This document shows, in pieces, positions 55,866-64,000 of a stretch of DNA of 64,000 bases. The stretch spans positions 24,986,001-25,050,000 of the forward strand of contig OZ024752.1 in the NCBI GenBank assembly GCA_964016885.1, written 5' to 3'. Made by a program: the position numbers and the translations under genes. The stretch comes from Eledone cirrhosa. Taxonomy: Eukaryota. The notes under the pieces are model-generated. The model did not search any database. It was not told where the DNA came from and worked only from the letters and a program-made list of their open reading frames with translations. Numbering within the stretch: the stretch's first letter is position 1; each line of letters opens with the position of its first letter.

Positions 55866-56789
55866 TATATATATATATATATATATCATCATCATCATCA
55901 TTATATATATATATATGTGTGTGTGTACTCGATTGTACCATCAATTTCCGAGGGTCCGTGTGAATATGTCATTTATTTTGTCTGACCCGTTTAGCTTGAC
56001 TCGCTTTTTTGGGTTAGGTGATTAATGGCTTCTTGACCGTCTTCTCAGTTTGTATGGCCTTTATAAGCTATGCTTATTGCTTTGGTCTCTTTAGCCCATG
56101 GAATGCTTGCCAGCATGACTCGGAATTTGCGCTGCGTTTCGCTATTTCTACCCGCCAAAATGCGATTCTCACTGAATATATATAGTAGTAACCTATATTC
56201 TGTAACTGAATATATAATGTAGTAACCTATATTCCGAGGACTCATGGATACATTCTCCGTGCGTTATTTGGCTCAGTTCAACCAATCGCTACCAGCGAAG
56301 CAAAATGTATCTCACTGGGAAAACAACAACTGGACTTGTCAGCATTTCCACCATTTCTCCTATGGATTCGCCAGAATTATAGAATTACCACTTCAACTAC
56401 TACCCACCTACATATTCAACTTACTTTTTTTTCAAAGCAACTAGCCATTTTTTCTTGGCTGCCTAGCACCTGCGGCAATTCATCTGCGAGGCGGTTCCGC
56501 CGCCGACCCTTAAGGTTGCGAGTAGGCGCCGGGGAAACCGACCGCCCACGGTTATAATTACTCGGCCAGGGGGTCCTGTCTATTATATAGAGTAAGCTTG
56601 ATCGGACGAGCACGAAGAAAACGGTTACGGGTGCTATGCGTTGCGGCTTGTGACTATTCCGTTTTCAAGGCAGGTACGTGCCGGCTTACCCTATGCGATG
56701 TCGGCTGTCTCCGTCTCGAACGATATGTCGACCTGTACTCGTCCGCCCCGCCTGCACGTTAACGCCCGCCCTCCGCCTGAGCCCCTTCT

Positions 56790-58118
56790 CCCGCTCCAGC
56801 GCCATCCATTTTCGGGTCCGGTCGATTCGGCAGGTAAGTTGTTACACACTCCTGAGCGGATTCCGATTTCCGTGGCCACCGTCCTGCTGTCTATATCGAC
56901 CGACACCCTTTCGGGGATCTAATGGGCAAAGCGTAGGGCACCTTAGCCGGACGTTCGGTTCATCCCACATCACCAGTTCTGCTTACCAAAAGTGGCCCAC
57001 TTGGCACCGTGCATTCGTCGCCGAGACGGCGGCCGCCTCCGATCGGGAGAGAAAGCGGCCCGTTTCGCCCATTCCGAGTTCGAGAGTAGATCGAGGCCGT
57101 CAACGTCCCCGACTGGGACTCCTCGGTCCGTGTTTCAAGACGGGTCGGGTAGGTTGCCGATGCTCGTCGCAGACCTGCAGCAGCGGACGGCTCGTGATCC
57201 TGGTCCGCCCAGCGACCCGCTCACTCCTGCTCCGCAAAGAGAGCAAAAGAGAAAAAGCAAACGGGGCGAGCGAACGAGGCGGCCGCTTTCTCGAAAGCCG
57301 ATCAGACATTTTAAGGATATAAAAAACCGACCTAAGCATATACGAACGGCGCTGCGGCTGATAAAGGAACACGCGCGTTTGTCCCGTCCCCGCCTGTTAG
57401 CCGTGCCTGGGACGATGAAAACCACCGCCGAGCGACGGGCCTGGTCGAGAGAAGCGCTGTTTTCGGAAACCCGCTTCGAAAGCGAACCGGGATGGTTCGT
57501 TTTCTAGGCGGGCCACCGCTCTGCGAACTGCGGACACTGCGCGCCATCCAGCCTGACGGGAACGGGTCGCTACCACGGATCGAAGGGGAAGTGTGTCCGA
57601 TGCCGGCACCCCGCGAATCGTAACGCCGGCGAGGCGGTCGGCGGTCCCCTCGCGATCGCGGTGAATGGTCCTACCCGTTTAACCCCTGGGCGGTTTCACG
57701 GTCTCTTGAACTCTCTCTCCAAAGTTCTTTTCAACTTTCCCTCGCGGTACTTGTCGGCTATTGGACTCGTCCCGGTATTTAGCCTTGGATGGAGCTTACC
57801 ACCCGCTTTGGGCTGCGTTCCCAAGCAACCCGACTCTCGGGCCGAAGAAAGAGACACTGTCGATCGCCGCCGGCTCTGAATGGGCCTGGCACCCGCTTTG
57901 GGCAGCCCCGATCGAGGGGACTCCGAACCTAGCCGGGCGAAACGAACGACCGTGTACGACCCTTGCGCCACAGCTCTCGACGACCTGCTTGCGGACGACG
58001 AGATTCAGCGTTGGGCTCCTCCCAGTTCACTCGCCGTTACTAAGGGAATCCCGGTTGGTTTCTTTTCCTCCGCTTAGCGATATGCTTAAGTTCGGCGGGT
58101 AGTCGCGTCCGAGTCGAG
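56790..58118 (-). rRNA. 28S rRNA 5' portion, inverted, with an internal deletion near 57113 (pseudogene)
   Basis: ACCCGCCGAACTTAAGCATA, GAAAAGAAAC, GTCTTGAAACACGGACC, GGTAAGCAGAACTGG and AAAATGGATGGCGCTGGAGC on minus. Confidence 0.92.
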
Positions 58119-58349
58119 GGCAGCTATTCGCATACGCCGAATACGCTGAATACGAAGAACGACGAGGACGGTAAGAAGAAGAAGGCGGCATTGATAAAGA
58201 AGAGGTTGGCGGCGGGCGCCGAGGCGGAATGTGGAAAAAAACGAGAGAAATGGGAAAAAAAGAGGCGGCATCGAAATCGTTTCTCGTCGGTCGACACGAA
58301 GGCTTTGTGTTTTTGGCGACTCGCAGAGCGAACGCCGGCCGACGAACAA
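58119..58349 (-). other. Probable ITS2 3' part
   Basis: Non-conserved sequence immediately 5' of the 28S start on minus, ending at the inversion breakpoint. Confidence 0.55.
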
Positions 58350-59232
58350 CGTACCTTCGGAAGAAGGATTGGCTCCGAGGACCGGGTCGGTCGGGCCGTG
58401 TGTGTGTCGGCCTGTCGGCCGTCTTGTTTTTTTTTCCAAAAACTCGGGATCGGTCGCGCGGCACGTCTGTACGCGAAGCGGTGAACCGGTACGGGGCTGT
58501 AGCGTTGGCGTCGGACTCGACGTTCGAGCGTCGGTCGGGTGGTCGATTTGCGCCCGTTTCGTTTGCGTTCGTTTCGTTTTTCCTTGCCCTTCTTTCGGTT
58601 GGCGGCGAGGAGAGAGAGGAAGAAGGCGGCGGCGGCTGCGGGTTGGTCGCGCGGAGGCGGACGGGGTTTGTTGAAAGATTACCGCGGAGGAGGGATGAAG
58701 GCGTAGCAGTGGACGGAGGGGGAGGAGACGCTTGTCGCTCGCAAGGGCGGTTTGTGTTTTTTTTTTTCTTTCGTTTTTCTGCTCGCTTTTGTTTTGTTCT
58801 TTCGGTTTTTTTTTTCTCTTTACCTTTACTGTTCGTCGCAGTGCCGGCGGCTCGCGCGTCGTCGTCGTCTTTTTTTCTTCGTTTTCTTCGTTTTTGTCGG
58901 TCGGAAACAAAAACGGGGGGCTTGGAGAGGCGCTAGCTTGGCGTTGGCGAGCGGCGTTTCGGTCGGTTACTTTTTGCGACGTTCGATGCGTAGTGGGCGC
59001 GAACAACACGGCTCCACGCCCGGGACACCGTGGAGCGACACGGCTTCGGGCTCGTTGGCGCGTCGGTTTGCTTCCTTTCTTTCTTGTTCGCGAGGAGGAG
59101 GGCGGTTGCCGAGACGCGCGGCAGGCGTTCGGCCGGCGGCGAACGGTCAACTCGGAACTGGTACGGACCGGGGGAATCCGACTGTCTAATTAAAACAGAG
59201 CATCGCGTAGCCGGCCGAGCCGCATAGACGCG

Positions 59233-59264
<32 letters not shown>

Positions 59265-59280
59265 AGTGAAGAAATTCAAC

Positions 59281-59318
<38 letters not shown>
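58350..59318 (+). rRNA. 28S rRNA central portion (expanded D8) up to the R2 target site
   Basis: AAGGATTGGCTC, GGGAATCCGACTG, CAAGCGCGGGTAAACGGCGGGAGTAACTATGACTCTCT. Confidence 0.93.
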
Positions 59319-59553
59319 CTTTGCGGCGCCACCCTTGACGTGGGAAGAGAGCTTAAATCCGTGGTTAGAGCTATACGAGTGAGTCAGCCCGACGCATTTC
59401 TTTTTGCGGTTTAACGCGTTACCGTACCTTTGGACGTTTGACTCCTTTCAGCTGGGGCCGGGGGGTCGGTTCCGGGGTGCGGGTTCGGGTTGACTCGGTA
59501 GGTTTTACCATACTCGGTTGGTCTGCCACATTAAGGATGAACTAATTGGCGCC
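59315..59553 (+). ncRNA. Predicted HDV-like (CPEB3-like) self-cleaving ribozyme with enlarged P4
   Basis: P1 CTCTCTT/AAGAGAG, P2 GGCGCCA/TGGCGCC, P3 CCC/GGG, L3 TTGACGT, P1.1 G-C, J4/2 CTAA (C59542). Confidence 0.65.
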
Positions 59554-60500
59554 TAAATTATGATTGTAATAATTATATAAAAATCATATATCCGTACGGT
59601 AGCTGGGGGCCGTTTTTAAACCAGTAACCGAGGGGTTGGGATGGGCCCCTTAGGTTTACTAACTACGGCGGGCCGCTGTGGTGGCTCCGTGATCATTACA
59701 GTTGGGTGTGATGGGATGGGGAGTCGCCGTGGTGGCTTGCTGTGGTACTAAACCACCCTCGAGGGCTGACACGGAGCCGGGATACGCCCTCTGGATTAGA
59801 GCCGGCTCAAACCTTTTTTTTTGTGGGCGCGGAAGTGCCTTGAAACTCTCTCCCTAGTTTGTTTTTTTTTATTAACTCGGTGAGCGGTCGGATATAATAT
59901 CCGAGAAGGAAAGGTAAGACGCCTCCGCCGTTCCGCTAGTCTGGTGGTTCGCCTTGGGAAAGCGATAGTACCACCTTATCCCCCCCGTCGCAGGGTTACG
60001 CGTTGCTTAAAGAAAAGCGCTCCTTTTTCTTTTTTTATTTTTTGAACTATTATTATTAACAGTTTCGTTAATAATATTTTATGAATAGGTAGGGAGTGAT
60101 AAAATGGCTTCTGGAGCGCCCCACAATTTTTTTTTTTTTTTTATAGAGTACGATGTATGACCAGGGAGTTTGGTGCCTCCCTGCGCGGGATTCGGGCAAC
60201 AGGATCTCCGCGCGGGGTTCGGTTCCGGATGCTTACTTGGTGCGTACAACCAGATTGACAAAGTGGCACGGCCGGGAGGGCTTAGTGTCTTGCATGGTTC
60301 GCTCGCTGAGGTGGCTCCCAGCCAGCACTCGCGAGGTCCATGGCTTGGCCTGCTCTTTTGGCGTGACCAACCAAATTTGACTGGGCACGCCGTTCATGCC
60401 ATTGTTGCTTGATGACGTTGGCCCGTGGGACCACCCACATTAAACAAAGGGAAAGGCGGCTTATACTTTGCAAAAAGTATTAGCTAATAGCCAGCTAACC
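59319..60500 (+). mobile_element. Non-coding 1,182-bp insertion at the R2 site of 28S (putative non-autonomous R2/SIDE-like element)
   Basis: 28S breaks after GACTCTCT and resumes at TAGCCAAATGCC (60501) with TAAGG lost; no ORF longer than 80 aa in the track. Confidence 0.85.
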
Positions 60501-60540
<40 letters not shown>

Positions 60541-60575
60541 CGGATCAACGAGATTCCCACTGTCCCTATCTACTG

Positions 60576-60610
<35 letters not shown>

Positions 60611-60617
60611 CGGATCG

Positions 60618-60657
<40 letters not shown>

Positions 60658-61194
60658 TTTTGTGAGGGCACACGGTAGGCGTAGCATAGGCGGGAGCAAT
60701 CTTGCGTCTCTCGGCTGGCGGCAGCGTCGTTTGCGGGTCGCTTGCGGCTTTGCGGCGGCGTTCGCCGTCTGTCGGGTACCGTGCGCGTTTGCGTCGATGA
60801 AAAACCGCCACTTCCGTAGTTTCTTCGCTCACTCGATTGAGAAGGGACGGGGCCGTCGCCGAGCGGTGGTTCATTTATCTGGTGCGAAGCGTGCGGTGCA
60901 TGTCGCGCGCGCACACGTTGTGCGCCGACGCAGCCGATGCGCGACCCTTAGTCGAGAACAGTGTCGGTCGGGGAGTTTGACTGGGGCGGTACGTCTGTCA
61001 AAGGGTAACGCAGGTGTCCCAAGGCGAGCTCAGCGTGGACGGAAACCACACGTTGAGCAAAAGGGCAAAAGCTCGCTCGATCTCGATTTTCAGTACGAAT
61101 ACGGACCGCGAAAGCGTGGCCCATCGATCCTTTCCGAATAGCGGCGAGCTATGCGTCCGCCGAGAGGTGTCAGAAAAGTTACCAAAGCGGCGTC

Positions 61195-61232
<38 letters not shown>

Positions 61233-61274
61233 CGAAGCAGAATTCGCAAAGCGTTGGATTGTTCACCCACTAAC

Positions 61275-61321
<47 letters not shown>

Positions 61322-61870
61322 TCCTACCGATGCATTGCGTGTAGGCGGCGGCGGTGGCGGCTGCAGCCACCTTCTCGAAGGCGGCTGCGGTCGGCGTCGC
61401 CGCCGGCAACGTCAACTCGGCTACGGCTATCCCGTCCAGTACGAGAGGAACCGCGGGATCAGAGCAACGGTTTGCGCGCTCGCTCGATAGAGCGGTGGTG
61501 CCAGGCTGCCTCTGAGCGATAACGGCTGAACGCCTCTAAGCCGGAACCGTAGCCGGACCCGAGTTGTTTTTCGAAAGCGTCTCAACCTTCTTAAGGCGCA
61601 TGCCTTAGTTTGGCGATTGCCGTCCGTTCGGCGAAGTCGCTTCCCTTTTCGGGGTGCGCGTCGTCGTCGGCGGCAGCGTCAGCGGAATTGCCATTCTGTG
61701 ACGATTGCGACGATTCGTCGTCGTTGTCGTCCGTTCGATTTGTCGAAAGAGATCGAGACGAAAAGGATCGCTTGTATACGACTCGACTTGCCGTTCGGAG
61801 TGACGTGCTTAGTAGAGCAGCTACCACACTGCGATCTATTGAGTCTCTTCTCACGAACGACACGATCCGC
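60501..61870 (+). rRNA. 28S rRNA 3' portion with a deletion in the peptidyl-transferase centre (pseudogene)
   Basis: GAAAGAAGACCCTGTTGAGCTTGACTCTAG, GATGTCGGCTCTTCC, sarcin-ricin loop AGTACGAGAGGAACC at 61438-61452, GCGATCTATTGA near the 3' end. Confidence 0.93.
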
Positions 61871-62214
61871 CCACCGAGGCGGCAGACAGGAGAAAAAGGA
61901 AATTTGAAAATCGGCTAAGGAAATTATGAACGAACGAACGAACGAACGAGAGATAGCAGCAACTACCGGGTTGGAGCAATGACTCGGTTTTCTTTCGACG
62001 GGTTAGCGTAGTAGCAACGACGACAACGACAAGTCCGCTCCTTAGCCGCCGCCGCCGCCGCCAATTGTTAGGTTCGTTCTTTATTACACTTCCACCGCTG
62101 CTACTGCAAACCACCAACCACTTTCCGCGCGCCAACTTTTACGACGATCTCGCTCGCCGCTCGTTTGCCAGGTTGCGCCAACGACCATCAAGGTCGATCG
62201 ATTAGCATCGAAAA

Positions 62215-64000
62215 TAGAGAGAGTTCGCGGTGAATGCGACGACGACACAGCCTTGATTCGAGTGACGCCGCCGCCGCCGCCGATCCGTCTTCCGAGTTGC
62301 TTATTTTTTTTTCGTATGTTACACGTAGAGAGAGAGTTCGCGGTGAATGCGACACGGCTTTCGTTAGAGTGCCGCCGCCGATCCGTCTTCCGAGTTGGTT
62401 ATTTTTGCGTGTGATACACGTAGCCGCCGCCGCCGCCCATCCGTCGTCCGAGTTGGTTAGTTTCGCGTATGTTACACGTAGAGAGAGAGTTCGCGGTGAA
62501 TGCGACGACACAGCCTTGATTCGAGTGACGCCGCCGCCGATCCGTCTTCCGAGTTGCTTATTTTTTTTTCGTATGTTACACGTAGAGAGAGAGTTCGCGG
62601 TGAATGCGACACGGCTTTGGTTAGAGTGCCGCCGCCGATCCGTCTTCCGAGTTGGTTATTTTTCACGTGTGATACACGTAGCCGCCGCCGCCCATCCGTC
62701 GTCCGAGTTGGTTAGTTTCGCGTATGTTACACGTAGAGAGAGAGTTCGCGGTGAATGCGACGACACAGCCTTGATTCGAGTGACGCCGCCGCCGATCCGT
62801 CTTCCGAGTTGCTTATTTTTTTTTCGTATGTTACACGTAGAGAGAGAGTTCGCGGTGAATGCGACACGGCTTTGGTTAGAGTGCCGCCGCCGATCCGTCT
62901 TCCGAGTTGGTTATTTTTCACGTGTGATACACGTAGCCGCCGCCGCCCATCCGTCGTCCGAGTTGGTTAGTTATGCTTGACGCGTAGCAGGCGGATTCTG
63001 TTTCGTGTGTGTGTCTGTGTGTGATGCAAGCCGCCCATCCGTCGTCCGAGTTGGTTAGTTATGTTTGACGCGTAGCAGGCGGATTCTGTTTCGTGTGTGT
63101 GTCTGTGTGTGATGCAAGCCGCCCATCCGTCGTCCCAGTTGGTTAGTTATGTTTGACGCGTAGCAGGCGGATTCTGTTTCGTGTGTGTGTCTGTGTGTGA
63201 TGCAAGCCGCCCATCCGTCGTCCCAGTTGGTTAGTTATGTTTGACGCGTAGCAGGCGGATTCTGTTTCGTGTGTGTGTCTGTGTGTGATGCAAGCCGCCC
63301 ATCCGTCGTCCGAGTTGGTTAGTTATGCTTGACGCGTAGCAGGCGGATTCTGTTTCGTGTGTGTGTCTGTGTGTGATGCAAGCCGCCCATCCGTCGTCCG
63401 AGTTGGTTAGTTATGCTTGACGCGTAGCAGGCGGATTCTGTTTCGTGTGTGTGTCTGTGTGTGATGCAAGCCGCCCATCCGTCGTCCGAGTTGGTTAGTT
63501 ATGCTTGACGCGTAGCAGGCGGATTCTGTTTCGTGTGTGTGTCTGTGTGTGATGCAAGCCGCCCATCCGTCGTCCGAGTTGGTTAGTTATGCTTGACGCG
63601 TAGCAGGCGGATTCTGTTTCGTGTGTGTGTCTGTGTGTGATGCAAGCCGCCCATCCGTCGTCCGAGTTGGTTAGTTATGTTTGACGCGTAGCAGGCGGAT
63701 TCTGTTTCGTGTGTGTGTCTGTGTGTGATGCAAGCCGCCCATCCGTCGTCCGAGTTGGTTAGTTATGTTTGACGCGTAGCAGGCGGATTCTGTTTCGTGT
63801 GTGTGTCTGTGTGTGATACAAGTTATGTTTAAAGTGCTAGCCGATGATGGTGTGTGTGTCTGTGTGTGATACAAGTTATGTTTTAAGTGCTAGCCGATGA
63901 TGGTGTGTGTGTCTGTGTGTGATACAAGTTATGCTTTAAGTGCTAGCCGATGATGGTGTGTGTGTCTGTGTGTGATACAAGTTATGCTTTAAGTGCTAGC
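62215..64000 (+). repeat. rDNA intergenic spacer subrepeats: 255-bp composite (~3 copies), 88-bp (~10 copies), 53-bp (to window end)
   Basis: Periods measured directly (62472/62727; 63001/63089; 63815/63868); located downstream of the 28S 3' end. Confidence 0.85.

Follow-up and report, generated by a model that had tools for sequence, protein, structure and literature searches.

A 28S rRNA gene of Eledone cirrhosa is interrupted by DNA that is not ribosomal, which raises the question of what this insert is and how it came to lie there. We analyzed it within a 64,000-nucleotide stretch of the genome assembly (hereafter, the window), in which the 28S gene, recognized by an Rfam large-subunit (LSU) match, occupies 58887-61868 of the + strand. 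The gene restarts at 60501, at the downstream half of the R2 target, and together with the Rfam match this bears out the initial annotation, which had placed the insert at the R2 retrotransposon site. We propose that the insert is very probably a non-autonomous R2 retrotransposon (SIDE) that arose by one internal deletion and likely spread via pre-rRNA, a predicted ribozyme and R2 protein acting in trans. The features to which we refer below are as follows.

56736..58350, - strand: inverted, internally deleted end of ITS2 and 5' part of 28S (Rfam and unit mapping); the host unit is a rearranged pseudogene
58887..59314, + strand: 28S upstream of the R2 site, with a two-base junction duplication at the end (Rfam LSU)
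59315..59321, + strand: 28S bases -11 to -5, predicted to form the 5' strand of helix P1 of the ribozyme
59322..60500, + strand: the entire element, very probably an R2 SIDE, 1179 nt (genome copies, alignment, tree)
59325..59356, + strand: 5' half of the predicted ribozyme core, with P2 5' strand (59325-31), P3/L3/P3 (59332-44), P1' (59345-51) and one-pair P1.1 (G59337-C59352)
59357..59538, + strand: predicted P4 domain, conserved three-way junction and SIDE-specific hairpin expansion of variable length (~59390-59484), with covariation across the SIDE and both R2 families
59539..59553, + strand: J4/2 with predicted catalytic C59542, and P2 3' strand
59560..59809, + strand: decayed start of the parent ORF (60 codons), with the deletion's 4-nt microhomology at its end (alignment, translations)
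59810..60382, + strand: 3' UTR inherited from the parent, since diverged and in part remade by internal repeats
60383..60500, + strand: terminal 118 nt, three conserved hairpins, putative R2-protein binding signal
60501..61868, + strand: 28S downstream of the R2 site, then spacer repeats (Rfam LSU)
C2:7575.7k (L016/L019), C3:366051.5k (L020), C7:29286k (L080) and C25:6657k (L147): older SIDE subfamilies with an internal 28S piece

With junction positions in 28S numbered backwards from the R2 target nick, the 5' junction of the window insert retains 28S to -5 plus a two-base duplication, and four target bases are missing. The loss of five bases (TAAGG) that had been read at this junction is corrected accordingly, and the element proper begins at 59322. 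The longest frame inside the insert, over all frames, is at most 104 aa, and tblastn with six R2 protein pieces of the same genome detected no reverse transcriptase or endonuclease remnant (best E 0.67). The initial description of the insert as lacking an ORF and such remnants thus stands, but it is not free of coding ancestry: an alignment to four parent copies and the translations identify 59560-59809 as a frameshifted, stop-ridden relic of codons 1-60 of the parent R2 ORF, in which the start codon is retained and stops and frameshifts follow. Poly(A) is absent from the insert, as had been noted, but the parent family has none either.

The rDNA unit that hosts the window copy has two deletions in its inverted part, ~780 nt of 28S missing at the turn and neither 18S nor 5.8S, and it abuts AT-rich repeat DNA. 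Because its unit is rearranged and without 18S, the window copy is probably not a source copy but a fossil, though a young one; its flanks are 0.0% diverged from the empty (uninserted) unit. On the 3' side of the 28S gene, 62200-64000 is a spacer of nested tandem repeats with units, judged by eye, of ~266, 88 and 47 nt. The 18S genes measure ~2.85 kb between terminal motifs (C12:25069074-25071933), much longer than usual.

Ancestry in a resident R2 family

Two coding R2 families, the parent R2-1 and R2-2, occur in this genome at the same 28S site as the SIDE. Both encode a reverse transcriptase (RVT_1); R2-2 has three N-terminal zinc fingers, and R2-1 copies have two by pattern with a third visible in the sequence. 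The families are 53% identical in the C-terminal half and have target and ribozyme core in common.

The insert is of bipartite ancestry. Its blocks 1-90, 164-336, 496-687 and 1048-1180 match both ends of coding R2-1 copies: the first ~490 nt align to the R2-1 5' end (predicted ribozyme and 60 ORF codons), and the remaining ~690 nt derive from the R2-1 3' UTR, which matches in blocks at 79-81% identity, with no match to the R2-2 3' UTR. Over well-aligned 5' columns the SIDE is 71-74% identical to the resident R2 5' end. At the deletion joint the R2-1 alignment leaps from codon 60 to ~170 nt into the 3' UTR; a 4-nt microhomology is common to both sides, and the exact fusion is intact in the oldest copy. 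A plain 5'-truncated R2, of which the insert would be wholly 3' UTR, was rejected because the insert's first 490 nt match the R2 5' end instead.

An autonomous R2 sharing both ends was found in part: R2-1 is a coding family, but an unbroken ORF is lacking in all 15 of the longer R2-1 copies examined. R2-2 has the one intact R2 ORF seen (1214 aa, L094:2764-6405, at C2:166.89 Mb); the best solved relative of its protein is zebra finch R2Tg (E 5e-142). Searching proteins with R2-2 returned no relative above 41%, and therefore no intact parent protein came from that search. One R2-1 copy (C10:26.69 Mb, L082:1952-4936), with an ORF of 995 aa in an element of 3818 nt, agrees in both lengths and in visible sequence with R2-1_ECi, which Table S2 of PMC13188248 assigns to Eledone cirrhosa, in line with an octopod host; in this copy an internal deletion removed the zinc knuckle and endonuclease. 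The intact 1214-aa R2-2 is absent from the six cephalopod rows of that table that were compared.

The R2-2 5' end opens with a mimic of the target's downstream half (L093, C2:251.16 Mb; L084-L087, C18:15.043-15.076 Mb), so that the insertion site is regenerated, and the SIDE and R2-1 insert at the R2-2 head. A head-to-tail array of R2-1, R2-2 and SIDE pieces extends over 30 kb on C18. At least three old R2-1-like elements lie head to tail at C3:332.083-332.093 Mb (L148), spaced by ~4.3-4.6 kb and with no 28S match there.

Copies, junctions and flanks

The insert is multi-copy; a single copy matching an unrelated locus would have told against the initial reading. As a query against its own 3.0-Gb genome it gave 74 matches, 12 of them near full length at 84-100% identity. 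We examined part of these DNA matches and of 93 protein matches; 15 of the 17 copies tried possess both ends, giving at least 15 full-length copies (1.15-1.38 kb), and these were used for the tree. They form one clade with 100% bootstrap in both halves of the element, which shows a single origin, and are 84.2-100% alike. The branching is a ladder from old to young subfamilies. Identity to four R2-1 copies is 66-73% (~30% diverged), and those copies are 82-96% identical among themselves. The older subfamilies carry an internal ~85-nt 28S piece whose end is a degraded version of the R2 target; this piece is missing from the subfamily of the window copy. On C7, a complete R2-2 is inserted in the internal target of a SIDE, so that one retrotransposon lies within the parasite of its relative.

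The 28S motif upstream of the target has 17 exact matches in the assembly, followed by a SIDE in 13, a coding R2 in three and neither in one, a filled share that differs from the share in the animal because the sole empty unit adjoins an assembly gap and the bulk of the rDNA is presumably missing from the assembly. Units mapped by BLAST and motifs contain or adjoin five copies near the window and on C25; four filled units and the empty one carry 18S, 5.8S and 28S motifs in order. Near-identical copies (a trio on C4 and pairs on C12 and C25, at 99.9-100%) are plain duplicates, indicating that DNA-level copying of whole units is also at work. Among reads compared with the insert only, contigs of run X1 cover 30/30 bins and those of X4 27/30 (one study, both runs perhaps being the assembly's source), and RAD-seq runs X5 and X6 from another study cover 6/30 bins each with 16 and 8 reads. 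The main SIDE variant in X4 reaches a depth of 126-139 versus 3-6 for side contigs, which hints, without amounting to a count, that the assembly under-represents one SIDE subfamily. One further 28S copy (L031, C1:80.9457 Mb) has only ~12 foreign bases at the R2 site, perhaps the scar of an abortive insertion.

Comparison of junctions across the 15 full-length copies, a check proposed with the initial annotation, revealed fixed 3' and varied 5' junctions. The 3' ends lie at the target's downstream half in 13 copies, at the target mimic heading R2-2 in one and in a (CA)n tract in one. At the 5' end, nine copies have the standard four-base deletion without duplication, which is also the junction of R2-1, four have 28S duplications of three kinds, one has a larger deletion and one is off-target. 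The last 1-3 bases of the SIDE differ between subfamilies, and one 5'-truncated copy joins 28S at a point well upstream of the R2 site. Divergence between distinct copies is 1.1-18.4%, and between their 28S flanks 0-3.1%. A lineage that changes while it repeatedly enters homogenised 28S genes should leave such a pattern, although gene conversion of the flanks could add to this gap. The youngest copies lie in 28S with 0-0.2% decay. The fixed 3' and varied 5' junctions, the off-target and 5'-truncated copies and the divergence of inserts relative to flanks point to retrotransposition.

Predicted ribozyme and terminal hairpins

Both ends of the SIDE have conserved RNA folds. At the 5' end, 59325-59560 folds far better than shuffled sequences (z -4.08), and the minimum free energy fold includes P2, P3 and P4 of an HDV-like ribozyme. 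By HDV numbering, L3 retains both active-site bases, U and G; P1.1 consists of one G-C pair, and J4/2 carries an invariant C with two As after it. The C (C59542) is invariant in 22/22 aligned copies, and its predicted catalytic role is drawn from HDV and R2 ribozymes as described in PMC3774820. P1', the seven bases after P3, has a sole full (7/7) partner in the upstream ~110 nt, namely 28S bases -11 to -5. The ribozyme is accordingly modelled as borrowing host 28S for the 5' strand of P1, with a predicted cut just before 59315 (-11).

Pairing over 22 copies (SIDE, R2-1 and R2-2) holds in 96.5% of 740 cells, compared with 32-41% in slid controls, and 13/34 pairs show double changes; the model was drawn from the same sequences, and kinship inflates the pair-shuffle test. 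Five P2 pairs, for which the aligner had offset the R2-2 rows, are outside these counts and were read from the motif table. The basal pair of P4 switched from G-C to A-U inside the SIDE lineage, when the ORF had already been lost. Shared variants occupy 4/68 columns of the ribozyme core versus 140/882 elsewhere (p 0.023), a modest conservation test (p 0.02-0.04). P1 and P1.1 are invariant, and complementarity is thus their one line of support. R2 elements of Octopus vulgaris, O. sinensis and O. rubescens have the same P1', and a P3 that is changed but paired. An Rfam scan of the insert gave no family at the gathering score and one chance match at E 5, so the ribozyme call is a product of manual modelling.

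Other registers were considered and rejected. A P1 with the cut at -13 would require the two R2 families and the three Octopus species all to carry a fixed mismatch, and it loses the G-C P1.1, and a cut at -28 has no partner sequence. The initial P2 register left 8/22 cells unpaired at the top pair, compared with two in the bulged register. Five off-target copies (two SIDE, three R2-1) retain at most six upstream 28S bases, which fits a cut near -11. Three duplication junctions extend to about -20 or -25, past the predicted cut, suggesting that some templates were uncut or differently cut and carried more rRNA.

The terminal 118 nt fold into three hairpins common to the SIDE and R2-1, with 97.3% of cells paired and 6/29 pairs with double changes, and have no R2-2 match. 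This segment is no less variable than the rest (21/114 columns), only compensated. These hairpins are likely the signal bound by the R2 protein.

Origin, spread and relation to known elements

We propose the following history for the SIDE. A single internal deletion fused the 5' 490 nt of a resident R2-1 to its 3' UTR. Copies in intact units would be co-transcribed with pre-rRNA by polymerase I read-through, and the predicted HDV-like ribozyme, whose P1 takes its 5' strand from seven host 28S bases, would cleave the transcript ~11 bases upstream of the target nick. The R2-1 protein would bind the terminal hairpins and carry out target-primed reverse transcription; copy DNA carrying the seven host 28S bases could then anneal to the target, which would reproduce the usual four-base deletion. 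Certain copies later multiplied together with their rDNA unit.

One alternative source of many similar copies is a dead R2 derivative multiplied along with rDNA units at the DNA level. Identical copies in duplicated units, the lack of an intact parent ORF among the R2-1 copies, a main rDNA array left unassembled (the gap beside the sole empty unit) and a precedent described in PMC4370867 are in line with it. However, the six kinds of 5' junction, the variable terminal bases, the exact-ended copies outside rDNA, the copy at an R2 head and the 5'-truncated copy call for separate insertion events, and compensatory changes arose inside the SIDE lineage. We consider this explanation highly improbable and largely refuted for the family, while it holds for some individual copies. 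A switch of helper, in which R2-1 is now dead and the intact R2-2 mobilises a true SIDE, draws on the intact ORF seen in R2-2 only, on the young copies in barely decayed 28S and on the target, ribozyme core and C-terminal similarity common to the two families. The SIDE 3' end, however, retains the R2-1 hairpins with covariation and does not match the R2-2 3' UTR, and an intact R2-1 may itself be unassembled because assemblies lose most rDNA; assemblies are often without full-length R2, as stated in PMC13188248. We regard the switch as very unlikely. A more elaborate scenario builds on it: the SIDE would be an old hyperparasite that has overtaken its parent, holding most assembled 28S sites, completing its ribozyme with host rRNA, once invaded by R2-2 in its internal target and, with the parent decayed, now moved by R2-2 protein. 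It would then amount to a natural change of helper and to a ready-made minimal template RNA for R2 proteins with three zinc fingers. We think this unlikely.

Other classes of insert fit less well. A neighbouring large-subunit rRNA position is a group I intron site known from protists, and a self-splicing intron would be a structured, ORF-less insert at almost the same position. Against this, target (exon) bases are deleted, the insert does not end in G, it shows no group I core in that Rfam gives no intron match even at E 5, and alignment to R2 accounts for its full length; the probability of an intron is vanishingly small. A SINE, which would have a tRNA, 5S or 7SL head and a polymerase III promoter, was rejected, since the insert has no notable Rfam match and its head is R2-derived.

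The reading as a SIDE moved by R2 protein, in keeping with the earlier view of a non-coding, R2-mobilised rDNA parasite, is thus supported by the copy number, the origin of both ends in a coding R2 and the R2-type junctions. As far as its sequence can tell, the insert has every feature of R2 SIDEs as defined on Drosophila willistoni in the account of Eickbush and Eickbush 2012 (PMC3414825): an R2 5' end, an R2 3' UTR with conserved fold, no reverse transcriptase or endonuclease coding, the 28S R2 site with a fixed 3' junction (13/15), independent R2-type 5' junctions and a predicted HDV-like double-pseudoknot fold. R2Dwi_SIDE, as described there, likewise joins an R2 5' ribozyme to an R2 3' UTR without an ORF, is multi-copy at the 28S R2 site with compensated folds and R2-type junction variation, and is ~25-30% diverged from the parent ribozyme region. 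The Eledone SIDE is longer (1.15-1.38 kb versus 529 bp), its subfamilies form a ladder at 84-100% identity whereas R2Dwi_SIDE varies by under 3%, and it is predicted to need host 28S for P1 whereas the Drosophila ribozyme cuts at the element's own end. Unlike R2Dwi_SIDE, it has no poly(A), has off-target copies, retains a decayed ORF start and almost the whole 3' UTR with a readable deletion joint, and has a ribozyme known here by prediction.

R2s that cleave inside 28S (Eickbush, Burke and Eickbush 2013, PMC3774820) are described as also taking the 5' strand of P1 from 28S and as having a uniform short target deletion with occasional tandem duplications of upstream 28S. Cut sites given in that text are -13, -25, -27, -28 and -29 (range 9 to 36), compared with the predicted -11; unlike the R2s in that text, the Eledone ribozyme is predicted to have a C-G pair at the cut and a swapped, G-C P1.1. 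A C-G pair at the cleavage site, though unusual, is reported in fungal HDV variants (Li and Breaker 2017, PMC5640933), which are active in cleavage and, by their description, also have an additional unpaired base near P2/P3 and, at the foot of P4, an internal loop rich in purines; that description does not link them to R2 or rDNA, and the likeness is one of description. R2-1_ECi, of the SIDE's parent family, and the Octopus R2s (Hassan et al. 2026, PMC13188248) have the same P3-L3-P1' motif and, unlike the SIDE, are coding elements. Two other non-coding R2 derivatives are described outside Drosophila: R2Br-deg of Bacillus rossius (PMC4370867), which unlike the SIDE is full length, with an inactive ribozyme and a spread ascribed to recombination, and the internally deleted R2-2_MUn of budgerigar (PMC5035012), which unlike the SIDE is described as one copy. 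A CR1 SIDE (PMC6740152) is another near case.

R2 SIDEs are described as rare, with one true case among 39 Drosophila species in the account of PMC3414825. The open-access literature searched showed true R2 SIDEs for D. willistoni only and none outside Drosophila, and its main texts nothing combining R2, octopus and 28S. Term searches found no mention of non-autonomous R2 in the main text of PMC13188248 or in the review PMC13580325, nor of 'cephalopod' or 'octopus' in the former main text. The class is already known; what is new here is an R2 SIDE family in a mollusc.

If this reading is correct, then because the SIDE is ~30% diverged from its parent and has no reading frame to protect, the parts it retains would mark the RNA signals that R2 needs, namely the ribozyme, the folded beginning of the ORF region and the three hairpins at the 3' end, and these would bear on template design for R2-based gene insertion. 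Its predicted ribozyme offers a direct test of an HDV ribozyme with a C start and swapped P1.1 in animals. For the animal, the SIDE may inactivate some host rRNA genes. A long-lived SIDE family in a mollusc would mean that this strategy is no fly oddity, and that it works too for R2s whose ribozyme borrows host rRNA.
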